A stretch of DNA of 33,600 nt from a virus. Shown piece by piece: positions 9,998 through 32,068 of the stretch. The stretch is from UHGV virus genome UHGV-1067530; one strand, written 5' to 3'. A model generated the notes under the pieces. It worked only from the letters and a program-made list of their open reading frames with translations. It searched no databases and was not told the DNA's origin. The position numbers and the translations under genes are program-made. Every line of letters starts with the position of its first letter. Positions within the stretch are counted from its first letter, which is position 1.

Positions 9998-10074
9998 CTC
10001 TGTTTAGCTCAGCTTGGTAGAGCGTTCCGTTTGGGGCGGTAAGGCCGGAGGTTCAAGTCCTCCAACAGAGACCA
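9998..10074 (+). tRNA. tRNA-Pro (anticodon TGG)
   Basis: Acceptor CTCTGTT/AACAGAG, D-arm GCTC/GAGC, anticodon loop TTTGGGG, T-arm GGAGG-TTCAAGT-CCTCC, encoded CCA. Confidence 0.8.
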
Positions 10075-10081
10075 AATTAAT

Positions 10082-10159
10082 GTTCCAGTAGACAAAATGG
10101 TATAGTCACCACTCTTTCAAAGTGGATATTTGAGGGTTCAAATCCCTTCTGGAACGCCA
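10082..10159 (+). tRNA. tRNA-Glu (anticodon TTC)
   Basis: Acceptor GTTCCAG/CTGGAAC, anticodon stem CCACT/AGTGG, loop CTTTCAA, T-loop TTCAAAT, CCA. Confidence 0.8.
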
Positions 10160-10162
10160 GTT

Positions 10163-10239
10163 TTGACAGAAGACCAATTACAGCAAACTTAATCTTATTC
10201 ATCTGAAGGTAAATCGGACAAAGAAGAGATTTGGTCTGG
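10163..10239 (+). repeat. Inverted-repeat-bounded element, copy 1 (TTGACAGAAGACC-AA-TTACAGCAA ... TTGGTCTGG)
   Basis: 5' box CAGAAGACC + TTACAGCAA, 3' box GGTCTGG; termini AGACCAA/TTGGTCT are complementary. Confidence 0.6.
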
Positions 10240-10251
10240 TCATTAAGAATT

Positions 10252-10327
10252 GCGGGTATAGAGAAAGGGCGTCTCACATGTCTCATTAGCATGGTATCGG
10301 CAGGTTCGACTCCTGCACCCGCCTCCA
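10252..10327 (+). tRNA. tRNA-Met/Ile2-like (anticodon CAT), slightly irregular acceptor/T-stem register
   Basis: Acceptor GCGGGTA, D-arm GAGA/TCTC, anticodon stem CATGT/GCATG, loop CTCATTA, T-arm GCAGG-TTCGACT-CCTGC; 3' strand ACCCGCC pairs with a 1-nt offset. Confidence 0.5.
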
Positions 10328-10329
10328 AA

Positions 10330-10397
10330 TTTACAGAAGACCGTTTACAGCAATATTTATTAAATTTTTAGCGGAAAAATTGAAAGATGTGGTCTGG
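10330..10397 (+). repeat. Inverted-repeat-bounded element, copy 2 (TTTACAGAAGACCGTTTACAGCAA ... GGTCTGG)
   Basis: 5' 27 nt identical to copy 4; internal AT-rich hairpin AATTTTT/AAAAATT. Confidence 0.6.
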
Positions 10398-10410
10398 TAA
10401 TACTAAACAT

Positions 10411-10487
10411 GGTTAGGAAGCACATAAGGTATGTGCGGTCGCCTGTTAAGCGAATGGCACAGGGTTCGAATCCCTGACTAACCGCCA
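10411..10487 (+). tRNA. tRNA-Asn (anticodon GTT)
   Basis: Acceptor GGTTAGG/ACTAACC, D-arm GCAC/GTGC, anticodon loop CTGTTAA, T-arm CAGGG-TTCGAAT-CCCTG, discriminator G, CCA. Confidence 0.75.
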
Positions 10488-10556
10488 AATTTAGGAGAGA
10501 AGCGATTGCTCACCGATTTGTAAGGTGCAAGTCCTTAGCCTGAATAGAAATTAAAT

Positions 10557-10644
10557 GTGTCGTTATCCCGTAGATGGTAGCGGTGGGGACTGTAAATCCC
10601 TTGTCATTGAGACTCGGTAGGTTCGACTCCTACACGGCACACCA
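10557..10644 (+). tRNA. tRNA-Tyr (anticodon GTA), long variable arm
   Basis: Acceptor GTGTCGT/ACGGCAC, anticodon loop CTGTAAA, ~15-nt variable arm, T-arm GTAGG-TTCGACT-CCTAC, CCA. Confidence 0.7.
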
Positions 10645-10649
10645 ACAAA

Positions 10650-10727
10650 GGTTATGTAGTTTAATTTGGTTAAAATACTCCCCTGTCACGGGAGATGATG
10701 AGGGTTCAAATCCCTTCGTAACCGCCA
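10650..10727 (+). tRNA. tRNA-Asp (anticodon GTC)
   Basis: Acceptor GGTTATG/CGTAACC, anticodon stem CTCCC/GGGAG, loop CTGTCAC, T-loop TTCAAAT, CCA. Confidence 0.75.
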
Positions 10728-10788
10728 ATTTTGAGAGGGCTATTTAGCCCCTCCCTTAAAGAGTTCTTACGAGTATTCTTTAAAGGAG

Positions 10789-10862
10789 CAGAAGACCAAA
10801 TACAGCAAGTTACTTAAAATTTCAAGCCAATTTAATTTTGAAAAATTTAAAACTTGGTCTGG
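10789..10862 (+). repeat. Inverted-repeat-bounded element, copy 3 (CAGAAGACC-AAA-TACAGCAA ... TTGGTCTGG)
   Basis: Same terminal boxes; interior is a long AT-rich imperfect hairpin (CAAGTTACTTAAAATTTCAA / TTGAAAAATTTAAAACTTG). Confidence 0.6.
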
Positions 10863-10871
10863 CTCAACAAA

Positions 10872-11006
10872 TTTACAGAAGACCGTTTACAGCAAAACTT
10901 AAACAATCTATTTCTCGGTAAAGAAAAGGAGAAGGTTCGATTCCTTCACTCGGCAGGTGTCGAGTTGGTGTAATGGTAGCACTTAAGATGATAAACAACG
11001 GTCTGG
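10872..11006 (+). repeat. Inverted-repeat-bounded element, copy 4 (TTTACAGAAGACCGTT ... AACGGTCTGG), containing tRNA-like fragments
   Basis: 8-bp terminal complementarity AGACCGTT/AACGGTCT; interior holds a T-arm (GAAGG-TTCGATT-CCTTC) followed by a D-arm-like segment. Confidence 0.6.
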
Positions 11007-11007
11007 T

Positions 11008-11151
11008 AATTATCTTTGTAGATAAGTTATTAAGCTTACCTGTGAGTATGCGACCACAAAGGGTGAAAGGGTAAATTCTAGATTTAAACCCAAAAAGGCA
11101 CATCGCTACAGACCTTAAGCAAGTCTGGGTAGCTTATCTACAAAGATAATT
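11008..11151 (+). repeat. 19-bp perfect inverted repeat (AATTATCTTTGTAGATAAG / CTTATCTACAAAGATAATT) flanking 106 nt
   Basis: Read directly: 11008-11026 is the exact reverse complement of 11133-11151; the interior contains CAGACC...GTCTGG. Confidence 0.7.
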
Positions 11152-11155
11152 TAAT

Positions 11156-11231
11156 GGAAGTGTAGCAGAATGGTGATGCGGCAGACTTTTAATCTGACAG
11201 GCGATGGGTTCGAATCCCTCCACTTCTACCA
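11156..11231 (+). tRNA. tRNA-Lys (anticodon TTT)
   Basis: Acceptor GGAAGTG/CACTTCT (G1-U72 wobble), anticodon loop CTTTTAA, T-loop TTCGAAT, discriminator A, CCA. Confidence 0.7.
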
Positions 11232-11235
11232 ATAT

Positions 11236-11312
11236 GGTTCAGTCGCAGATAAGGTAATGCAAGGGTCTCATAAGCCCTATGAATGTGGGTTCGATTCCCA
11301 TCTGAACCTCCA
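11236..11312 (+). tRNA. tRNA-Met or Ile2 (anticodon CAT)
   Basis: Acceptor GGTTCAG/CTGAACC, anticodon stem AGGGT/GCCCT, loop CTCATAA, T-arm TGGG-TTCGATT-CCCA, CCA. Confidence 0.75.
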
Positions 11313-11314
11313 AT

Positions 11315-11389
11315 TGTGGGTTAGCATAAATGGTAATGCAAACGGCTGATAACCGTTAGAAGAGGGTTCGATACCCTCACCTACAACCA
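11315..11389 (+). tRNA. tRNA-Ile (anticodon GAT)
   Basis: Acceptor TGTGGGT/ACCTACA, D-arm GCA/TGC, anticodon stem AACGG/CCGTT, loop CTGATAA, T-arm GAGGG-TTCGATA-CCCTC, CCA. Confidence 0.75.
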
Positions 11390-11404
11390 ATTTCAATAAA
11401 GTTG

Positions 11405-11433
11405 TTGACATTGAGATGTGACTACTTTATAGT
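11405..11433 (+). promoter_or_regulatory. Putative sigma70-like promoter inside the tRNA array
   Basis: aaagttgTTGACA (11405-11410), 17-nt spacer, TATAGT (11428-11433). Confidence 0.45.
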
Positions 11434-11439
11434 AACTAA

Positions 11440-11726
11440 AATACTTCAGAATATGTATAATTCAAACACCAATACATGAGCGTTAGACGTAACACAATGT
11501 GGGGAAATTTGTTGTACATATTCTGAATAGTTTTCGTTGCGTAGCGTCTATTTTGCAAATTTAAAATAAATGCAAACGACAATGTTTTTCTGGCAGTAGC
11601 TTGATAGGCTAAACACCAGTGAGGTCTTCCAATCCCTCATCAAAGAATTTGGCGTACTAGCCCACGGTATGATTAATAAGGTGGGCATCTTTAAGGGCTT
11701 TCTAAGAGAGTCTTTAAAGATAATTA
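11440..11726 (+). ncRNA. Candidate structured non-coding RNA region (ORF-free, multiple hairpins)
   Basis: No ORF of 60 aa or more; 13-bp perfect inverted repeat TTCAGAATATGTA (11445-11457) / TACATATTCTGAA (11515-11527); hairpins GCCCAC...GTGGGC, TGAGG...CCTCA, TTTGCA...TGCAAA; sits downstream of the 11405 promoter. Confidence 0.35.
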
Positions 11727-11808
11727 CGGGGCGTATCTCAGCGGTCTTCTAAACCGCCGTTAACCGAGTAAGTGGAGTATGCGGGTTCGAGTCCTGCCGC
11801 CTCGACCA
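11727..11808 (+). tRNA. tRNA-like, Arg(TCT)-type anticodon arm, atypical (no canonical D-arm, 23-nt segment before the T-arm)
   Basis: Acceptor CGGGGCG/CGCCTCG, anticodon stem GCGGT/ACCGC with loop CTTCTAA, T-arm GCGGG-TTCGAGT-CCTGC, discriminator A, CCA; the D-arm 3' strand is not identifiable. Confidence 0.45.
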
Positions 11809-11950
11809 ATTAGTTAGCAGATTACTTAGACGACCTAAGCGGGTCTTCCTGTAGGGAGGTGGTCTGTATCTCATGTTTTCCAGAACATGTAAATAATCTG
11901 AGAAGGGGCTTTACAGTGTTGAGATAATACGGTAAGCTTCGAATTATAGT

Positions 11951-12033
11951 ATGGGACGATGTTAAGACTCTAAGGCATGAGCAACGGCTTCCAACACCGT
12001 TTCAAAGGGGTTCAACTCCTCCGTCCCATGCCA
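11951..12033 (+). tRNA. tRNA-like, Trp(CCA)-type anticodon loop, atypical (7 extra nt in the D region)
   Basis: Acceptor ATGGGAC/GTCCCAT perfect, hairpin ACGGC-TTCCAAC-ACCGT, T-arm AGGGG-TTCAACT-CCTCC, discriminator G, CCA; D region is 26 nt. Confidence 0.4.
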
Positions 12034-12046
12034 AAGTCTTATTAGG

Positions 12047-12134
12047 GGTAGGTAGCGGCTAATGGTAGCCAAACTGTCTTGAAAACAGTTGCCACTGTAG
12101 AGATACGGTGAGGGTTCGACTCCTTTACTTACCG
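12047..12134 (+). tRNA. tRNA-Ser (anticodon TGA), long variable arm; CCA not encoded
   Basis: Acceptor GGTAGGT/ACTTACC, anticodon stem ACTGT/ACAGT, loop CTTGAAA, ~20-nt variable arm, T-arm GAGGG-TTCGACT-CCTTT, discriminator G. Confidence 0.7.
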
Positions 12135-12137
12135 CCT

Positions 12138-12391
12138 AATAAGATTTAAAGCCAAGCTTCATTCGGATGTCGCTTTGGTATCCCGCGTGTATTGTCGTAC
12201 ACACTGATAAAACACCTAGTAGGTGTCACGGAGAAGAGATAATATCAAGCTCTCCAAAGGTTCTAGTCACCGGATTAAACAAGACTATGCAAAGACCTTT
12301 TTAGGTCTTTTTAGAGGGCTTCTAAGGTTATTACAGCTTGTTGTGGAACCTTGTTGCTTAGGTTCTTAGAAGTTCTCTAAAAAGATTTAAT
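12138..12391 (+). ncRNA. Candidate structured non-coding region (hairpins, terminator-like stem, long CTTCTAAG/CTTAGAAG hairpin)
   Basis: ORF-free; hairpins GTGTA...TACAC, ACACCTA...TAGGTGT, GGAGA...TCTCC; AAAGACC-TTTTT-AGGTCTTT followed by a T-run (about 12288-12312); inverted repeat CTTCTAAG (12320) / CTTAGAAG (12365). Confidence 0.3.
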
Positions 12392-12469
12392 GGGAGATTG
12401 ACGGTAATTGGTAAACCTACCATCCTTAGAAGTTGGTGTTTGAGGGTTCGAATCCCTTGTCTCCTACCA
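12392..12469 (+). tRNA. tRNA with Leu-type anticodon TAG but short (5-nt) variable loop
   Basis: Acceptor GGGAGAT/GTCTCCT, anticodon stem CCATC/GTTGG (one U-U), loop CTTAGAA, T-arm GAGGG-TTCGAAT-CCCTT, discriminator A, CCA. Confidence 0.55.
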
Positions 12470-12476
12470 AATTAAT

Positions 12477-12552
12477 GCAGGTGTAGCAAAATGGTTATGC
12501 GGCTGACTCTTAATCAGTAAGACGATGGGTTCAATTCCCTCCACCTGTACCA
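12477..12552 (+). tRNA. tRNA-Lys (anticodon CTT)
   Basis: Acceptor GCAGGTG/CACCTGT, anticodon stem GCTGA/TCAGT, loop CTCTTAA, T-loop TTCAATT, discriminator A, CCA; close paralog of the 11156 tRNA. Confidence 0.7.
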
Positions 12553-12558
12553 GACATT

Positions 12559-12634
12559 TGGGTCATAGTTTATATGGTTAAAATTCGAGTTTTGCAAACT
12601 TGGGAACTGAGTTCAATTCTCAGTGACTCCACCA
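12559..12634 (+). tRNA. tRNA-Ala (anticodon TGC)
   Basis: G3-U70 wobble present in the acceptor (TGGGTCA/TGACTCC), anticodon stem CGAGT/ACTTG, loop TTTGCAA, T-arm CTGAG-TTCAATT-CTCAG, discriminator A, CCA; 1-72 is unpaired (T/C). Confidence 0.7.
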
Positions 12635-12640
12635 ATTAGT

Positions 12641-12715
12641 GCATCCATAGTTTAAACGGGAAAATTACAGTCTTCCAAACTGAGGTTGAGGGTTCGATTC
12701 CCTCTGGATGCTCCA
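12641..12715 (+). tRNA. tRNA-Gly (anticodon TCC)
   Basis: Acceptor GCATCCA/TGGATGC perfect, anticodon loop CTTCCAA, T-arm GAGGG-TTCGATT-CCCTC, CCA. Confidence 0.75.
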
Positions 12716-12721
12716 AACAAT

Positions 12722-12798
12722 GCTGCTTTCGTATAATTGGCTATTACACATCCCTTGTAAGGATGGAAATGCAGGTTCGAGTCCTGTGAGCAGCACCA
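12722..12798 (+). tRNA. tRNA-Thr (anticodon TGT)
   Basis: Acceptor GCTGCTT/GAGCAGC, anticodon stem CATCC/GGATG, loop CTTGTAA, T-arm GCAGG-TTCGAGT-CCTGT, discriminator A, CCA. Confidence 0.8.
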
Positions 12799-12799
12799 A

Positions 12800-12893
12800 T
12801 TCAGAGGTCAAGTGAAAGACCGCTGGTGTCAACTGAAGACCGTAACAAATTCCACGGAGTTGAGTTAGCGGCACAACTTCAGACCTCTTTCAC
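12800..12893 (+). repeat. Repeat/palindrome-rich spacer related to the CAGAAGACC element family
   Basis: CTGAAGACCGTAACA (12836-) resembles the 5' box; AGAGGTC...GACCTCT and CTGAAG...CTTCAG inverted repeats. Confidence 0.4.
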
Positions 12894-12968
12894 ACTCGCT
12901 TAGTTTATATGGTAAAACATCACCCTTACAAGATGAAGAAAAAGGTTCAAGTCCTTTAGTGAGTACCA
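12894..12968 (+). tRNA. tRNA-Val (anticodon TAC)
   Basis: Acceptor ACTCGCT/AGTGAGT, D-stem GTTT, anticodon loop CTTACAA, T-arm AAAGG-TTCAAGT-CCTTT, discriminator A, CCA. Confidence 0.65.
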
Positions 12969-12969
12969 T

Positions 12970-13047
12970 GTTCCAGTATCCCAATTGGCAGAGGATGCAA
13001 GCTCAAACCTTGTATTAGTGACGGTTCGAATCCGTCTTGGAACACCA
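12970..13047 (+). tRNA. tRNA with Leu-type anticodon CAA but short (6-nt) variable loop
   Basis: Acceptor GTTCCAG/TTGGAAC, D-loop AATTGGCAGAG, anticodon stem TGCAAG/CTTGTA with loop CTCAAAC, T-arm GACGG-TTCGAAT-CCGTC, discriminator A, CCA. Confidence 0.55.
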
Positions 13048-13065
13048 ATTTAAAGAGGCTATTTA

Positions 13066-13623
13066 ATGAGATATTTGAAGTATGCTTCATGGATTTTCTT
13101 AGCTTTACTAGACCCAATTGCAGCAATCCTAGCAGTTATCTTAGCACCTTTCGTAGTTCCATTCTACAGTGAGAAGAAAGGACATCTACCTTTTGGATTC
13201 AGATGGATGGAGACCTATGACAACCCGATTGATGGTGACGAAGGTCACGTTAAAAGATGGGCTAAGATTAGAAAGATTGGTAAGCTGGGTGTCTACATGC
13301 AGAGAGTTGGGTGGCTCTGGAGAAACAAAGCTTATAACTTCTCTTACCATGTATTAGGAAGAGATGTAAAAGATGTTACTAAGTGGAGAGGTAATATCAA
13401 CGTAAGTTCTGACCCTGAAGATAATCAGACTGGTTATCTCCTAATGTGGAACAACAATGCTTGGGGATTATTCGCTTTTATTCCGTCAATTAAAGTCTTT
13501 GGTAAACAGTTTTACTGGAGAATTTATGTTGGATGGAAACTAAAAAGTGTTGTCCCAGAAGAAAGAGCATTCTCAAGGGAAAGAGTTATGTTGGCATTCT
13601 TTATTCATCCACTGAGAAAGTAA
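13066..13623 (+). CDS. hypothetical membrane protein (185 aa) embedded in the tRNA array
   Basis: ORF with RBS aaagagg upstream; N-terminal hydrophobic helix WIFLALLDPIAAILAVILAPFVVPF; Trp/Arg-rich remainder. Confidence 0.6.
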   Translation: MRYLKYASWIFLALLDPIAAILAVILAPFVVPFYSEKKGHLPFGFRWMETYDNPIDGDEGHVKRWAKIRKIGKLGVYMQRVGWLWRNKAYNFSYHVLGRDVKDVTKWRGNINVSSDPEDNQTGYLLMWNNNAWGLFAFIPSIKVFGKQFYWRIYVGWKLKSVVPEERAFSRERVMLAFFIHPLRK

Positions 13624-13631
13624 AGATTTAA

Positions 13632-13707
13632 AGGGGATTAGTTTACAAGGTTAAAACCTCGGTCTTTGAAATCGAAGAAGTTGGTTCAATTCCAACATCC
13701 CCCGCCA
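13632..13707 (+). tRNA. tRNA-Gln (anticodon TTG)
   Basis: Acceptor AGGGGAT/ATCCCCC with unpaired 1-72, discriminator G, anticodon stem TCGGT/ATCGA, loop CTTTGAA, T-arm GTTGG-TTCAATT-CCAAC, CCA. Confidence 0.7.
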
Positions 13708-13709
13708 AT

Positions 13710-13788
13710 GCTCCATTACTCCAATTGGCAGAGAGGCCAGACTTAAAATCTGTGTTATGTATCGGTTCGAATCCGATATGGAGTACCA
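13710..13788 (+). tRNA. tRNA with Leu-type anticodon TAA but short (7-nt) variable loop
   Basis: Acceptor GCTCCAT/ATGGAGT, D-loop AATTGGCAGAG, anticodon stem CCAGA/TCTGT, loop CTTAAAA, T-arm ATCGG-TTCGAAT-CCGAT, discriminator A, CCA. Confidence 0.55.
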
Positions 13789-13793
13789 ATTTT

Positions 13794-13869
13794 AGCGGTA
13801 TAGCATAACTGGCAATGCAGCAGTCTCTGAAGCTGTCCTATTAAGGTTCAAATCCTTATGCCGCTGCCA
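13794..13869 (+). tRNA. tRNA-Gln (anticodon CTG)
   Basis: Acceptor AGCGGTA/TGCCGCT, D-arm GCAT/ATGC, anticodon loop CTCTGAA, T-arm TAAGG-TTCAAAT-CCTTA, discriminator G, CCA. Confidence 0.7.
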
Positions 13870-13900
13870 CTTCTAAGGGTTCTTACGAGAGTCCTTAAAT

Positions 13901-13976
13901 GTGGCCTTATCATAAACGGTAATGACCCATGCTGTGAACATGGTCTATACGGGTTCAAATCCCGTAGGTCACCCCA
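13901..13976 (+). tRNA. tRNA-His (anticodon GTG)
   Basis: Acceptor GTGGCCT/AGGTCAC, D-arm TCAT/ATGA, anticodon stem CCATG/CATGG, loop CTGTGAA, T-arm ACGGG-TTCAAAT-CCCGT, discriminator C, CCA; position -1 is T, not G. Confidence 0.8.
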
Positions 13977-13981
13977 ATTTA

Positions 13982-14058
13982 TAGTCCAAGTAGCTTATAT
14001 GGTTAAAGCGCGTGTCTGAAAAACATGAGAAGAGGGTTCAAATCCCACTGGACTACCA
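13982..14058 (+). tRNA. tRNA-Phe (anticodon GAA), acceptor register slightly irregular
   Basis: D-arm GCTT/AAGC, anticodon stem CGTGT/ACATG, loop CTGAAAA, T-loop TTCAAAT; acceptor TAGTCCA/TGGACTA pairs perfectly but leaves a 4-nt linker before the D-stem. Confidence 0.6.
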
Positions 14059-14074
14059 ATTTCAAAGGTGCTTA

Positions 14075-14809
14075 ATGAAAGAGATGACAGGACAAGGTAA
14101 GGAGATTTTTAATCTCTTAAAAACCGGTAAAGGGTTTTCTAACCCACTTATTACTGGTGCAGCAGTTCTCGGTGGAACCGTAGCTGCCTCTACATCACTT
14201 GTAAGCTCTATTAGCTCTGTAACAGACCCGACAATGAATGAGAAACTTGTTGCTGCTGGACTTACAACAGTCCTTCTAAACAGCTTTACAACAAGCCTGA
14301 CAAGCACTACAGCAACTACTAAGACCCTAACAGACTATGGTCAAAAGTCTATTGATGAGTTTTCATCACGTATGCAGGTAGCAAAGGGGTATTCCAATGT
14401 TATGGGTGCAGCAGGAGAACAAGTTGGTTGTACACCATTCAGTGGTATTATGGGTGTTGCTACAGAGTATGGTCAAAAAGCTATTGACATGATTAACAGC
14501 ACACTAGACAGTGTTAACGGTGTGTTAAGTGACTTACAAGACGCTATTGATAAGGGTCTTGATACTGTTTCTGATTTAGCTAATCAAGCTGTTAGCAAGA
14601 TTAATGAAGGTATCTCAAAGATTACAGCTTATGCAGATGAAGTTGTGCAGATGATTGAAGAAGAAGCTGCCCTTATTGCAGAGTACCTTAAAACGAATAT
14701 CAATGGGTTCTTAGCAGGTATCTTACCAGACTGGTTTGATGATGCTCGCAAAACTGGTGTAATCGACACTATTGCAACACCAGAAATGAAGAACGCATTA
14801 CAGAAATAA
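14075..14809 (+). CDS. hypothetical Ser/Thr-rich protein (244 aa)
   Basis: The ORF track starts at 14012 inside tRNA-Phe; first ATG with an upstream aaagg RBS is 14075 (MKEMTGQ...); S/T-rich N-half, helical C-half. Confidence 0.55.
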   Translation: MKEMTGQGKEIFNLLKTGKGFSNPLITGAAVLGGTVAASTSLVSSISSVTDPTMNEKLVAAGLTTVLLNSFTTSLTSTTATTKTLTDYGQKSIDEFSSRMQVAKGYSNVMGAAGEQVGCTPFSGIMGVATEYGQKAIDMINSTLDSVNGVLSDLQDAIDKGLDTVSDLANQAVSKINEGISKITAYADEVVQMIEEEAALIAEYLKTNINGFLAGILPDWFDDARKTGVIDTIATPEMKNALQK

Positions 14810-14810
14810 T

Positions 14811-14903
14811 GGAAGATTAACCCTAAAAGGTAAGGGAGCAGTTTGCTAAACTGCCAGTAGCTGAGAAATCGGTGTACCAGTTCAAGTCTGGTATCTTCCT
14901 CCA
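14811..14903 (+). tRNA. tRNA-Ser (anticodon GCT), long variable arm
   Basis: Acceptor GGAAGAT/ATCTTCC perfect, D-stem CCC/GGG, anticodon stem GCAGT/ACTGC, loop TTGCTAA, ~20-nt variable arm, T-arm ACCAG-TTCAAGT-CTGGT, CCA. Confidence 0.8.
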
Positions 14904-14907
14904 ATCT

Positions 14908-14983
14908 GAATCCGTGACAGAAATGGATATGTGCCTGTCTGCAAAACAGGTTTATAAGGGTTCAAGTCCCTTCGGATTCTCCA
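14908..14983 (+). tRNA. tRNA-Cys (anticodon GCA)
   Basis: Acceptor GAATCCG/CGGATTC perfect, anticodon stem CCTGT/ACAGG, loop CTGCAAA, T-arm AAGGG-TTCAAGT-CCCTT, discriminator T, CCA. Confidence 0.8.
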
Positions 14984-22701: not shown

Positions 22702-23183
22702 TGGTTAAAAGGGTTATTCACCCCGCTAGAGCAAAATTAGTCGGGGCTATGAAGAACTTGCAAACGGCTAATGCTCAAGTTGGGTATTTTCAAGAACAAG
22801 GTCAACATAGCTCTGGTTTTTCTTATCCTGCTTTAATGTATTTACAAGAAGTTATTGGGGTTCCCTCAGCTTCTGGTAAAGTATATCGTAGGTTGTTTGA
22901 AATCACTATGATGCTAAACAAACAGACCTTGTTAGAGCAGACTAAGAAGAATCTATATAAGCAACTTAGCAGTCTCAACACAGACCCTTCAAATACCTTA
23001 GAAGCATTTGCAAAGAATGCTCAAAAGGCAATTAAAAGAGGTTTTGGTAACTCTGCTATACTCCCTCCTAACGCACCTTCCACAGTCAAGAAAAAAGGCT
23101 TTAACGCACCTCTTGTTGAGACAGGTGACTTAAGAGATAACCTTGCTTATAAAATTTCTACTAAGAAGGGTATTAAGAAATGA
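22701..23183 (+). CDS. hypothetical neck protein (160 aa)
   Basis: ORF, coupled. Confidence 0.45.
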   Translation: MVKRVIHPARAKLVGAMKNLQTANAQVGYFQEQGQHSSGFSYPALMYLQEVIGVPSASGKVYRRLFEITMMLNKQTLLEQTKKNLYKQLSSLNTDPSNTLEAFAKNAQKAIKRGFGNSAILPPNAPSTVKKKGFNAPLVETGDLRDNLAYKISTKKGIKK

Positions 23184-23581
23184 GACTCTTAAACAGACAC
23201 AGCTTTGTAGTAAAGCGTAAAGTCTCTGAAGACGGTTATTATAATGATGATGGTGATTGGGTAGCTTCACAAGATATTGTAGAGGTTAACTGTAAAGGTA
23301 ATATCCAGCCATATATCAAAGGTTCTGTAAAGAATGGTACACAGATTGCTTTACCGGAAGGTATCAGACTTACCGATACAAGAATCCTGTATACTACATA
23401 TAAACTTAGAACTTCAGATGATGTAGAGTGGAATGAGTCTGATATTGTTATGATTGATGGTCATGAGTATGAAGTATTTATGACTATGGATTGGTCACAG
23501 CAATTAGCCCATACGTCCCATTATGAATATATCATTATTAGAAGGGATAAAATGAATGCAGTTAGAAACAGCAGAACTTGA
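23180..23581 (+). CDS. hypothetical neck/tail-completion protein (133 aa)
   Basis: ORF, coupled. Confidence 0.45.
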   Translation: MRLLNRHSFVVKRKVSEDGYYNDDGDWVASQDIVEVNCKGNIQPYIKGSVKNGTQIALPEGIRLTDTRILYTTYKLRTSDDVEWNESDIVMIDGHEYEVFMTMDWSQQLAHTSHYEYIIIRRDKMNAVRNSRT

Positions 23582-24155
23582 AAAAGGTCTAGTTAGAACC
23601 TTAGTGGATGTTATTGGTCACAGATTAGCTCGTGATAAAAATAATAGGCCAAACGTAATTAGAGCTTACCCTTCTGATAACTCAAATGACAAAGGTTTAA
23701 AACCTGACCAGCCATTTATCACTGTATATTGTCAAGATGCTGCAACACCTTATGGTTGGGTTCTTGATAAGTTTGTTGAGGATGATGTAGTTTGCTACAG
23801 AATTGCTTTTCAGATTCCAGTATTAATTACGGTGAATGGTAAAGGTGCTCACAGTATTATGCTTGAGCTTAAACAACGATTAGAGATGAGTTCAGTCAGA
23901 GATTTAATCCTTGAAGAGACAGGAGCTACAGTACTAGACACTGGAGCTATCCCGAATGACTATACTTATCTCAATACAGATTTCGAAAATTCTGCGCCTC
24001 TTGTTGTAACTCTTGTAAAAAACTCAGTCCTGAAGGATGAACGTGGAAGTATTATTGAGCGTGTCATTGTTGATGGTGAGTTGGTTTATGAAGAAGGACA
24101 AGAGCCACCAGAATATACTATCCATCTAGATGTAGACTCCAAAGGGGTAAAATAA
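23556..24155 (+). CDS. hypothetical structural protein (199 aa)
   Basis: ORF overlapping the previous by 26 nt. Confidence 0.45.
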   Translation: MQLETAELEKGLVRTLVDVIGHRLARDKNNRPNVIRAYPSDNSNDKGLKPDQPFITVYCQDAATPYGWVLDKFVEDDVVCYRIAFQIPVLITVNGKGAHSIMLELKQRLEMSSVRDLILEETGATVLDTGAIPNDYTYLNTDFENSAPLVVTLVKNSVLKDERGSIIERVIVDGELVYEEGQEPPEYTIHLDVDSKGVK

Positions 24156-25508
24156 ATGTGGAATCCAATTGTTAATGTAGATATTACATTGAACACCGCA
24201 GGAACTACAAGAGAAGGTTTTGGTTTGCCACTATTCTTAGCTTCAACAGATAACTTTGAAGAAAGAGTGCGTGGTTACACTTCCTTAACTGAAGTTGCTG
24301 AAGATTTCGATGAGAATACTGCTGCATATAAGGCTGCTAAACAACTTTGGAGTCAGACTCCTAAAGTAACTCAGCTTTATATCGGTAGACGCGCTATGCA
24401 GTACACTGTATCAATTCCTGATGCCGTTACCGAAAGTACAGACTACTCAATTACTGTAGCTGCTGGCGGTGGAATTTCTCAACCATACCAGTACACAGCA
24501 CAAAGTTCAGACACTGCTGAGAACGTGTTACAACAGTTTAAAACACAGATTGAAGCTGACCCAACAATCAAAGATAAGGTTTCTGTGAATGTAACTGGTA
24601 GTAATGGCTCTGTCACAATGATTATTGCCAAAGCTGGTGATAATGACTTTGTGAAAGTAACAACCACAGCACAGACTGTATATATTGCAAGTACAACTGC
24701 TGATACAGCATCAACTGCTCTGGCAGCTATCGAAGCTTACTCTACCGACTGGTATTTCATTGCAGCAGAAGACAGAACTCAACAGTTTGTCTTAGCAATG
24801 GCTTCTGAGATTCAGGCTCGCAAGAAAATCTTCTTTACAGCTAACTCCGATGTAACAGCCCTGCAAGGTACAGAATTAGCCAGTGCAAATGATGTTCCAG
24901 CACAGCTTGCTAAGAATATGTACACTCGTACAGTTTGCTTGTGGCATCACGCAGCAGCAGAAGATTACCCAGAGATGGCATACATTGCTTATGGTGCTCC
25001 ATATGATGCAGGTTCAATTGCTTGGGGTAATGCTCAGCTAACTGGTGTAGCAGCTTCTCTACAACCATCTAATCAGAGACCTCTGACAAGTATTCAGAAG
25101 TCTGCTTTAGATGTACGTCACTGTAACTTTATTGACCTTGATGGTGGTGTTCCAGTGGTTCGTAGAGGGATTACTTCTGGTGGGGAATGGATTGATATCG
25201 TCCGTGGTGTTGACTGGTTAGAATCAGACCTGAAAACTTCTCTGAGAGACTTGCTAATTAACCAGAAGGGTGGTAAGATTACTTATGATGATACTGGTAT
25301 TACCCGTATTCGTCAAGTCATTGAAACCTCTCTGCAAAGAGCAGTCAACAGAAACTTCCTGTCATCTTACACAGTTAATGTTCCTAAAGCCTCTCAAGTT
25401 GCTTTAGCAGACAAGAAAGCTCGTATCCTGAAAGATGTTACCTTCGCAGGTATCTTAGCAGGGGCTATCTTGGATGTTGACTTGAAAGGTACAGTGGCTT
25501 ACGAATAA
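24156..25508 (+). CDS. Putative tail sheath protein (DUF3383-like)
   Basis: 450 aa, directly upstream of a small tube-like gene and a strong terminator; family assignment from memory. Confidence 0.45.
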   Translation: MWNPIVNVDITLNTAGTTREGFGLPLFLASTDNFEERVRGYTSLTEVAEDFDENTAAYKAAKQLWSQTPKVTQLYIGRRAMQYTVSIPDAVTESTDYSITVAAGGGISQPYQYTAQSSDTAENVLQQFKTQIEADPTIKDKVSVNVTGSNGSVTMIIAKAGDNDFVKVTTTAQTVYIASTTADTASTALAAIEAYSTDWYFIAAEDRTQQFVLAMASEIQARKKIFFTANSDVTALQGTELASANDVPAQLAKNMYTRTVCLWHHAAAEDYPEMAYIAYGAPYDAGSIAWGNAQLTGVAASLQPSNQRPLTSIQKSALDVRHCNFIDLDGGVPVVRRGITSGGEWIDIVRGVDWLESDLKTSLRDLLINQKGGKITYDDTGITRIRQVIETSLQRAVNRNFLSSYTVNVPKASQVALADKKARILKDVTFAGILAGAILDVDLKGTVAYE

Positions 25509-25523
25509 TAGAGGTAAATTGGA

Positions 25524-25970
25524 ATGGCTATGTATCAGCAATATTCCCCTAAAGACGTTGTATGTAGCTGGAATGGTATTGCCATTGAAGGCTTTGCCCC
25601 AGACTCATTCTTGCGTCTACAGAGAACATCACCACTTGTGACACCAGTTGTTGGTGCAGGTGGTCAGGTTGCTCTGACAAGAAATGCAGACAAGACAGGT
25701 ACTATTGAGATTGAGCTAATGCAGACTTCTCTCTCTAACCAGATGCTTTCTGCAATTCAAGCTAAACAAGACAATATGGAACTTGAAGTAGATATCTCTT
25801 CTAACTTCGTAATCTACGACCCATCAGGCTCTGTTCTGGCAACTGGTATTAATGCTTGGTTGCAGGAGTTGCCACAGATTGAACTTGGTCGTGACCAGAA
25901 CTCTAAAACTTGGATTTTTGGTTGTGAGAAGCTAGACTATACTTCTACAATTCCAGCGTCAAGTGTTTAA
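25524..25970 (+). CDS. Putative tail tube protein
   Basis: 148 aa following the sheath candidate and followed by a terminator. Confidence 0.45.
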   Translation: MAMYQQYSPKDVVCSWNGIAIEGFAPDSFLRLQRTSPLVTPVVGAGGQVALTRNADKTGTIEIELMQTSLSNQMLSAIQAKQDNMELEVDISSNFVIYDPSGSVLATGINAWLQELPQIELGRDQNSKTWIFGCEKLDYTSTIPASSV

Positions 25971-25982
25971 TAAATCCTATAA

Positions 25983-26014
25983 GGGGGAGACTTTAAAAGG
26001 TCTTCCCCTTTTTT
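25983..26014 (+). terminator. Intrinsic terminator after the tube gene
   Basis: Stem GGGGGAGAC / GTCTTCCCC with loop tttaaaag, followed by TTTTTT. Confidence 0.55.
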
Positions 26015-26043
26015 GTTTCTTTTAAAAGTATTAAGGAATCACA

Positions 26044-26442
26044 ATGAAAACAGAATTTAGAGTAATTAATGGTAAGAAAGTAAATATCGTTCTGCTTGGG
26101 GCAAGAGATGGTATTAAGATGTCTATGAAGTTGGGTAAAATTGTTGTTCCAACCTTTGCACAGATGCTATCAAGTCTGACTGACAAGGATAAGAAGGAAG
26201 CTCCAATGGTTCCATTTAAAGAACTTGTTGAAGCTTGTTTTGACAGAATTGAAGAGATTAACCTTGAAGAAATGGCAACTCTGTTATTTCAAGGGGCAAC
26301 TGTTGATGACTTCCCACTTAATATTGATACGTACTTCCAAGCAAACTATGGTGAGTTCATTGATTACTTAGCATTTGCGCTGGAGGCAAACTTCGGAAGT
26401 TTTTTCGAAGCAAGCATTTTCAAAAGCCTAACTTCTCAGTAA
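26044..26442 (+). CDS. Putative tail assembly chaperone (132 aa)
   Basis: Position immediately upstream of the tape measure gene. Confidence 0.4.
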   Translation: MKTEFRVINGKKVNIVLLGARDGIKMSMKLGKIVVPTFAQMLSSLTDKDKKEAPMVPFKELVEACFDRIEEINLEEMATLLFQGATVDDFPLNIDTYFQANYGEFIDYLAFALEANFGSFFEASIFKSLTSQ

Positions 26443-26444
26443 AC

Positions 26445-26683
26445 ATGGGCAACACTCTACAGACACCACTAACTGATGCTGCTGTAGAGGCAACCTATGA
26501 AGAAGCAGACGAGATGAAATTTGTGCTTGCTATTTATGGTATGGAAGGGTGTAAAGAAACACTTGACCAACTCTTTGCTATGACATTCTCTGATTTATTA
26601 TCATTGAGACAATTTCTTGAAATTCAGAGGTCGTATAAAGAGGAAATTGCTTACAACGAACTTAGAAGAGCAGGAAAAATGTA

Positions 26684-26684
<1 letters not shown>
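26445..26684 (+). CDS. Putative tail assembly chaperone, second small ORF (79 aa)
   Basis: Position; stop overlaps the tape measure start (TAATG). Confidence 0.4.

Positions 26685-32068
<5,384 letters not shown>

Follow-up and report, generated by a model that had tools for sequence, protein, structure and literature searches.

An 82-nucleotide element at positions 11727-11808 of the viral genome UHGV-1067530 (a stretch of 33,600 nucleotides, hereafter the window) is best read as a functional phage transfer RNA (tRNA) for arginine, tRNA-Arg(UCU), with a non-cloverleaf, permuted secondary structure. On comparative sequence grounds this reading is given a probability of about three in four. The source of the window is a Felix O1-like myovirus, and positions 11400-12400 are 100% identical to Salmonella phage Mushroom. 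An earlier sequence-only reading of this DNA had noticed a tRNA-like gene without a canonical D-arm and had offered three options for it, a rearranged tRNA, a decoy, or a pseudogene. The first of these is now supported, the decoy is disfavoured, and the pseudogene is excluded by compensatory evolution in four helices. Anticodons of the arginine type, covarying helices, a genomic slot shared with an ordinary tRNA-Arg(UCU), and the codon demand of the phage together make a working tRNA-Arg(UCU) the best supported explanation.

The evidence comes from a family of relatives, which was collected by pattern scans of IMG/VR and one metagenome scan that yielded 31, then 55, and then at least 140 distinct 82-nucleotide (nt) sequences. 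The D-stem columns were not fixed by the search patterns, and the decisive scan left positions 10-13 and the segment after CRUUAA free; the GGA of the D-loop-like segment was fixed. Pairing statistics were calculated for 50 aligned members and compared with 500 shuffles and with slid registers. Stem cells were paired in 98.5% of cases, vs 66.9% in the shuffles and 34-48% in the slid registers, two-sided changes occurred in 18 of the 20 stem pairs, and none of the 500 shuffles matched the observed values. The acceptor, anticodon, and T stems vary freely through compensatory substitution: in these 50 members the acceptor stem is 99.1% paired with all seven pairs changed on both sides, the T-stem is 98.8% paired with four of five pairs changed on both sides, and all five anticodon stem pairs covary.

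Members of the family are found in unrelated tailed phages, including enterobacterial phages of 85-350 kb, and in freshwater, marine, soil, and gut metagenomes. A scan of 185,579 bacterial and archaeal species (one genome each) with the motif in its commonest form matched only two contigs, both of metagenome-assembled genomes; the family is thus essentially phage-borne. Homing endonuclease genes (HNH or endonuclease VII-type) lie directly 3' of the permuted tRNA in several phages, namely Felix O1 (locus L002, 26003-26395), Roth39 (L006, 798-1307), mio, and CRP22, and none is present in the window. These downstream genes hint at movement of the tRNA cassette between unrelated phages.

Relocated D-stem and proposed permuted core

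All parts of the element lie on the plus strand. The 5' strand of the acceptor stem, CGGGGCG (11727-11733), pairs with CGCCUCG (11798-11804) and includes a G3.U70 wobble; the 3' strand continues through the discriminator A73 (11805) to CCA (11806-11808), which is encoded in 103 of the 140 members. The T-arm, GCGGG-UUCGAGU-CCUGC (11781-11797), has a T-loop of the UUCRANY type. The anticodon arm, GCGGU-CUUCUAA-ACCGC (11741-11757), with the anticodon UCU at 11748-11750, has the 5-bp stem, 7-nt loop, U33, and purine 37 of a tRNA, and its loop CUUCUAA recurs in 112 of 140 members. These are the parts that the sequence-only reading had singled out as good or textbook, and each was confirmed. Its spacing was also exact: only 5 nt lie between A9 and the anticodon stem, a local D hairpin is absent from positions 9 to 26 and from 11727-11808 as a whole, and 23 nt (11758-11780, CGUUAACCGAGUAAGUGGAGUAU) separate the anticodon arm from the T-arm.

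The same reading had held that a D-stem strand is missing, and this did not stand. The trinucleotide CUC at 11737-11739, in the place of canonical positions 23-25, pairs with GAG at 11766-11768, which lies within the 23-nt segment 3' of the anticodon arm, so that the helix encloses the anticodon arm. In every one of the 140 distinct members this long-range D-stem is paired, whereas with shuffled partners 61.6 ± 4.5 members were paired, with a maximum of 77 in 2000 trials. Twelve combinations occur between positions 11-13 and alignment columns 40-42: CUC/GAG, CAC/GUG, CGC/GCG, CAG/CUG, CUU/AAG, CGG/CCG, CAU/AUG, CGU with either ACG or GCG, CCC/GGG, CUG/CAG, and CCG/CGG. When given the 140 sequences, RNAalifold found this D-stem unguided and in addition stacked U8-A44 and A9-U43 on it.

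Three other pairings were considered and rejected. In the first, UCUC would pair with a second GAGU at 11775-11778; all 57 members with a non-majority D-stem pair at columns 40-42, and only four of them could pair with this other GAG (columns 49-51, 11775-11777). A class II-type variable arm between columns 38-40 and 47-49, seen in the minimum free energy fold, shows only one-sided wobble changes and is broken where A occurs. Finally, a 2-bp helix (32-40 / 33-39) that RNAalifold proposed from the first alignment of 31 sequences is broken by CAUUAA variants.

The segments that join these helices are also conserved. In the 5' connector between the acceptor and anticodon stems, which reads UAUCUCA as a whole, U8 A9 U10 (11734-11736) precede the D-stem strand, and U8 and A9 are found in 140/140 members although the scan did not constrain them. 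A single spacer A at 11740, the likely equivalent of position 26, is A, C, or U in the family and is sometimes pairable with column 39 (C-G in 7 members, U.G in 5, A-U in 15). After the anticodon arm, the 8-nt linker CGUUAACC (11758-11765; consensus C-R-U-U-A-A-N-N) leads to the relocated D-stem strand; its C and UUAA are conserved, its second position is G in 109 members, A in 29, and U in 2, and its final two positions are free. The relocated strand, GAG plus U (11766-11769), would correspond to canonical 10-13 and is followed by the D-loop-like AAGUGGA (11770-11776; consensus AANYGGA), which may be equivalent to A14 R15 N16 Y17 G18 G19 A20/21. Where this segment was unconstrained, A44 is invariant, A45 is present in 54 of 55 members, and only the positions equivalent to 16 and 17 vary. 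A variable-loop-like connector, GUAU (11777-11780), whose last U is the putative equivalent of U48, occurs in 54 of 55 unconstrained members, and the lone GUAG member also has G at the R15-like position.

In this mapping, the strand U10 C11 U12 C13 with one further nucleotide would stand for canonical 22-25 and 26, and the segment 10-21, normally ahead of position 22, would now follow position 43, a change that amounts to a circular permutation of the D/anticodon domain. The core nucleotides U8, A14, R15, G18 G19, A21, and Y48 are all present by position matching, in permuted order. Since an A-form helix is pseudo-symmetric, the coaxial stack of the D and anticodon stems, the U8-A14 pair, and the elbow between G18G19 and the T-loop could survive the permutation, and the permuted core could in principle keep the L-shape.

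Annotation tools do not describe this structure. ARAGORN made no sensible tRNA call at 11727-11808 with either default or relaxed thresholds, and its relaxed calls of transfer-messenger RNA (tmRNA) took in pieces of tRNA-Ile. The Rfam tRNA model (RF00005) scored 31.7 bits against a gathering score of 29, with the D-arm deleted in the alignment (4 nt against 15 model positions) and 20 nt inserted in the variable region; thus a fold with a normal D-arm, which the sequence-only reading had named as a refutation if alignment-aware tools found it, did not emerge from this model. In databases, members are labelled 'tRNA-OTHER' (Roth39) or 'tRNA-Leu(taa)' (121Q) or carry no label, and other Felixounavirus records (Si3, ST11) have 'pseudo' or 'tRNA-OTHER' features within the same 1-kb region. 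If the element is charged and decodes, such misses and mislabelled records mean that censuses of phage tRNAs systematically lose an Arg tRNA (and here also a Trp tRNA), which distorts analyses of codon usage and tRNA complement.

Probable arginine identity, codon demand, and a shared slot

The anticodons of the 140 members are UCU in 128, CCU in 5, ACG in 4, UCG in 2, and ACU in 1, so that position 34 is variable, position 35 is always C, and position 36 is either U or G in 140/140. Position 73 is G in 82 members, A in 50, U in 6, and C in 2, i.e. A or G in 132 of 140. The bacterial Arg identity set consists of A20 as the main determinant, C35, U or G at 36, and A or G at 73 (PMC9976931). The spectrum of anticodons and of position 73 in these sequences matches the determinants of arginyl-tRNA synthetase (ArgRS), and it would be hard to explain unless recognition by ArgRS had been selected. 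An A directly after the GG (11776) is present in all members recovered, with the limit that 'GGA' was part of the search patterns, and its equivalence to A20 is presumptive.

In the window, a tRNA array at 9998-14983 comprises 24 genes called by ARAGORN, 23 of which were also called by Rfam. These 24 tRNAs cover 18 amino acids and lack Arg and Trp, and no other Arg tRNA than the element at 11727-11808 was found among them. The codon AGA accounts for 51.5% of Arg codons, or 22.9 per 1000 codons, in the 36 open reading frames of the window; AGA is a rare codon in enterobacterial hosts. A sigma-70-like promoter, TTGACA-17-TATAGT (11405-11433, plus strand), is recognised by its consensus match of 11/12 only, and the interval from it to tRNA-Ser at 12047 showed no terminator-like site. 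Together, these features suggest that the element is co-transcribed with its neighbours, and the promoter probably drives a transcript that holds both an upstream tag module and the tRNA at 11727-11808.

If the element works as proposed, the gene would share a transcript with the neighbouring tRNAs, RNase P and 3' processing would trim the product, host ArgRS would charge the RNA through the A20-like base, C35, U36, and A/G73, and the charged tRNA would decode AGA, plus AGG by wobble. The tertiary fold, transcription, processing, arginylation, and ribosomal decoding of the element are all predictions from sequence.

The position of the gene points in the same direction. In the Mooglevirus phages Mordin and Sf13, and also in pEC-M719, the hairpin upstream and the sequence downstream of the slot are the same, and a canonical tRNA-Arg(TCT) of 74-77 nt lies between them; its anticodon arm, ACGGT-CTTCTAA-ACCGT, recurs exactly in several permuted members. 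Erwinia phage SunLIRen likewise carries a canonical Arg(tct) and lacks a permuted gene, and the two forms occur together in only one of 29 related loci (L027). The canonical Mooglevirus tRNA-Arg(UCU) (77 nt in Mordin and Sf13) shares with the element the slot, the loop CUUCUAA, G or A at 73, CCA, and a near-identical T-arm (ACAGG/GCAGG-UUCGAAU-CCUGU), and its D-loop (AACUGGACA / AAACGGAUA) resembles AANYGGA. It differs in that its D hairpin (GUUC...GAGC) is local and its variable loop has 5 nt, whereas in the window element the 5' strand of the D-stem and the D-loop follow the anticodon arm, the D-stem has 3 bp and a U.U mismatch, and an extra 8-nt linker is present.

Alternative readings and the upstream tag module

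Several observations weigh against a functional permuted tRNA-Arg. For the element's own sequence the 3-bp D-stem is thermodynamically neutral and gains no preference from the nearest-neighbour model, with -22.5 kcal/mol when it is formed, -23.7 kcal/mol without it, and a minimum free energy of -25.3 kcal/mol, and the single-sequence fold is no better than those of shuffles (z = 0.04), so that chance is not excludable from a single sequence and the family comparison is required. Position 10 faces an invariant U43 as a mismatch (U.U in 133 members, C.U in 7). The tertiary equivalences of A14, G18G19, A20, and U48 rest on invariant nucleotides, and because the mapped bases do not vary, the tertiary mapping lies beyond a covariation test. 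One metagenome member (beginning CCACCCGTATCTCAACCGCCTACTAAGCGG) has the anticodon ACU, a reader of the serine codon AGU, and keeps C35 and U36; an error in sequencing, a copy that is no longer functional, or a tRNA that mistranslates naturally could each account for it. Locus L027, with both forms, demonstrates that the canonical and permuted tRNAs are not strictly exclusive.

It has been considered, tentatively and as a rather unlikely account, that the permuted fold is a fully competent adaptor that spread because its rewired core escapes a nuclease or a decay pathway that hits canonical tRNA-Arg, while ArgRS, EF-Tu, and the ribosome would still be satisfied; the tRNA-directed nuclease or decay pathway is here taken as either host-encoded or phage-induced.

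The element could instead be a non-decoding mimic, a decoy or sponge for an anticodon nuclease or another tRNA-directed defence, or a trap that titrates a tRNA-binding factor. Phage tRNAs that counter tRNA-targeting defences are an established theme, the altered core could itself turn the RNA into a poor substrate or an effective trap, most members strictly conserve the anticodon loop CUUCUAA, and L027 holds a canonical Arg(tct) beside its permuted copy. A decoy, however, needs neither a full set of acceptor, T-arm, CCA, and discriminator nor U8, G18G19, and the A20-like base. The anticodons are confined to NCU/NCG with position 34 free, a pattern that follows ArgRS identity and not one nuclease target, and the element replaces the only AGA-reading tRNA of its slot and is the sole Arg tRNA in the array. 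A decoy that does not decode is therefore considered improbable, although a decoy role could coexist with decoding as the reason why the topology was kept.

Far less probable is that the element serves a phage tmRNA-like system as its tRNA-like domain, receiving alanine by way of G3.U70 and A73 and working with the tag module about 130 nt upstream. The Rfam tmRNA model aligns the acceptor, the T-arm, and ACCA, and at 22.1 bits it is the best Rfam match in E-value mode; a stretch upstream of the element aligns with the tag regions of tmRNAs; the window copy has both G3.U70 and A73; and a resume sequence with the tag ANDNVFLAVA followed by two stops lies at 11563-11607 in the same probable transcript. 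However, the score is far under the gathering score of 47 for tmRNA, only 8 of the 140 members have G3.U70, and the family has a full covarying anticodon arm of the Arg type, an arm that is absent from the tRNA-like domains of tmRNAs. The tag also occurs without the permuted tRNA in HK620-like prophages, Cba120, May, S5, and SunLIRen, an ordinary tRNA-Arg follows the same tag module in Mooglevirus, and the permuted tRNA occurs without the tag module in 121Q, PHB05, Roth39, POP12, and KNP2. Since the tag and tRNA modules are independently distributed and G3.U70 is rare, this reading was dropped.

It is a shade less probable still that a precursor is rearranged or edited into a canonical cloverleaf, with the odd order existing at the DNA level only. 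The segment order here is a clean permutation, and a red alga is reported to have gene-level permuted tRNAs that are resolved via circular intermediates (PMC3728597). The acceptor strands of the element, however, are in normal order, and circularisation would therefore not give the canonical order. The covarying long-range helix moreover shows selection on the RNA fold as encoded, which contradicts a rearrangement at the RNA level. We know of no bacterial machinery for such an internal tRNA rearrangement. A decaying pseudogene or chance tRNA-like sequence, in favour of which the ARAGORN misses, the 'pseudo' or OTHER labels of some records, and the z value of the lone fold could be cited, has a negligible probability given at least 140 distinct sequences with four compensating helices and a near-invariant core in unrelated phages and environments.

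The tag module itself lies at about 11449-11690, and its stretch 11563-11687 recurs in other replicons. Its tmRNA-like resume region reads AAAAUAAAU immediately before GCA, the tag frame ANDNVFLAVA comprises ten codons (11572-11601), and the two stops at 11602-11607 are presented in the loop of a hairpin with the stem UAGC/GCUA. A pseudoknot at 11619-11652, whose second stem covaries (CCAA/UUGG vs CCAG/CUGG), and a further hairpin at 11660-11686 follow. Among 18 distinct copies of the tag, third codon positions make up 8 of the 12 variable columns, the tag frame has 164 synonymous differences vs 5 and 48 in the other frames, and the stop is fixed in position with TGA, TAA, or TAG as its codon; the tag frame thus bears the mark of coding-type selection. 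Neither a start codon nor a tRNA-like domain was assignable for the tag module, and no convincing tRNA-like domain was found in the lambdoid, ViI-like, N4-like, or T5-like copies. A closing helix of the lambdoid copies, UGUGGUG...CACCACA, was rejected as a tRNA-like domain for its lack of a T-loop and of a conserved CCA.

Tag modules of the form AN[D/E]xx[F/Y]LAVA are found in HK620-like prophages (between Q and holin) and in ViI-like, N4-like, T5-like, and Erwinia phages, as well as in phage-plasmid-like replicons, with 534 plasmids of about 104-110 kb, most of them non-mobilizable. The lambdoid copies on prophage-like contigs (L001, L070, L074, L113) lie in an unannotated structured region of ~600-700 nt, which extends from a tR'-like terminator to ~400 nt past the tag and has helices GGUAAGAGCAUU...AGUGCUCUUUCC repeated on both sides of the tag. 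It has been published that Felix O1 and Moogle encode ssrA and that Mushroom does not (PMC4392139, PMC4319497). Here, ARAGORN called no tmRNA in Felix O1 23000-31000, and the Felix O1 and Mushroom loci have the same tag and the same permuted tRNA. The spacer between tag module and tRNA (11690-11726) forms a long hairpin; when it is compared with L002 25880-25950, the sequence is wholly different (ATCTTTAAGGG...CTTTAAAGAT in the Mushroom type vs AACATTCTAAAGGGTA...TACCCTTTAAAATGTT in the Felix O1 type) and the hairpin structure is kept.

Other unusual tRNA-like genes and known systems

A second odd gene lies downstream of the element. This tRNA-Trp(CCA)-like gene (11951-12033, plus strand; anticodon 11991-11993) was missed by both ARAGORN and Rfam. 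It has the acceptor ATGGGAC/GTCCCAT, G73, and CCA, and a 10-nt connector, GAUGUUAAGA, is present instead of the 2-nt U8-N9. Its 3-bp D-stem CUC/GAG covaries to CAC/GUG, and its anticodon stem covaries as well (ACGG/CCGU, UAAG/CUUA, UAGG/CCUA), with a C31.A39 mismatch. The gene was seen only in Felix/Moogle-like phages, always with CCA, and a pattern scan for relatives outside Ounavirinae gave only chance matches that do not fold. Together with the permuted tRNA-Arg, the Trp-like gene would complete the 20-amino-acid set of the array.

Further tRNA-like RNAs were observed in related loci. An RNA of ~125 nt, in L119 (Mordin, about 124-248) and L122 (pEC-M719), lies between tRNA-Arg and the Trp-like gene. 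It has the acceptor GGTCAAG...CTTGACT, G, CCA, and the T-arm GTAGG-TTCGACT-CCTAC, with ~90 nt replacing the D/anticodon region, and carries CGUUAA and GAGUAA, which also occur in the core of the permuted tRNA-Arg; it is absent from the window. A conserved tRNA-like RNA of ~135 nt, GCCGUUAUAUCUGAC...UUGGGUUCGACUCCCUAAAACGGCUCCA, is situated about 250-330 nt past the tag modules in L114 (Cba120) and L118 (May); it has a T-arm, an acceptor-like closing helix, and CCA, and was uncalled by ARAGORN. In addition, ARAGORN reported 'tRNA-???' genes with a two-base anticodon (ga) at L008 263-337, L010 2598-2672, L012 262-337, and L040 5383-5457. These genes, from Mydovirus-like arrays with the permuted tRNA-Arg, may be further non-standard tRNAs.

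To our knowledge, tRNA connectivity is regarded as invariant outside mitochondria. The family described here is natural and alters the connectivity of the cloverleaf, apparently keeping all elements for the L-shape and for ArgRS recognition, and it sits in ordinary phage tRNA arrays, where a normal tRNA-Arg(UCU) can occupy its position. Should it be charged and decode, the bacterial translation apparatus would accept a permuted tRNA without adaptation, and the family would offer a natural test of topological vs merely spatial tRNA requirements as well as a new scaffold for orthogonal tRNA engineering. No description of a permuted tRNA topology or of the tag peptides was found in the full-text literature, most subscription journals being outside its coverage; as far as searched, the element represents a widespread and previously unrecognised class of Arg tRNAs with a permuted D/anticodon domain.

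By most criteria the element is a tRNA-Arg, although the local D hairpin that defines the cloverleaf is absent from it. Besides the canonical phage tRNA-Arg(UCU), four known systems are close enough to be compared. According to a 2024 paper, every bacterial tRNA known so far is a canonical cloverleaf, and armless tRNAs occur naturally in mitochondria only (PMC11551756). The D-arm-lacking mitochondrial tRNAs, such as mammalian mitochondrial tRNA-Ser(AGY), and the engineered E. coli 'mini HisT' likewise have no local D hairpin and a short 5' connector (PMC11551756). Armless mitochondrial tRNAs and mini HisT, however, are truly without a D-stem and without contact between D-loop and T-loop, and adopt a Y-like shape (PMC11551756). 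In contrast, the window element has a covarying relocated D-stem, which is paired in 140/140 members, and a conserved D-loop mimic that bears G18G19, and at 82 nt it is not shortened.

In the red alga Cyanidioschyzon merolae, the order of tRNA segments is likewise permuted at the gene level (PMC3728597, PMC3978253). The 3' half there reportedly precedes the 5' half, and circularisation and cleavage yield a canonical mature tRNA, whereas in the window element the acceptor strands are unswapped and the permutation, which apparently persists in the mature RNA, is confined to the internal D/anticodon domain. The allo-tRNAs, with 8/4 or 9/3 acceptor/T branches, are also non-standard and were also mined from genomes and metagenomes, partly of phage origin (PMC5389517). 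They change helix lengths and keep the cloverleaf order, whereas the window element changes connectivity. The tRNA-like domain of tmRNA, including the gene of mycobacteriophage DS6A that consists of this domain only (PMC4131195), similarly combines an acceptor, a T-arm, and CCA with no canonical D hairpin. The window element differs from it in that no mRNA-like domain is inserted, the tag module is separate, and a full Arg anticodon arm is present.

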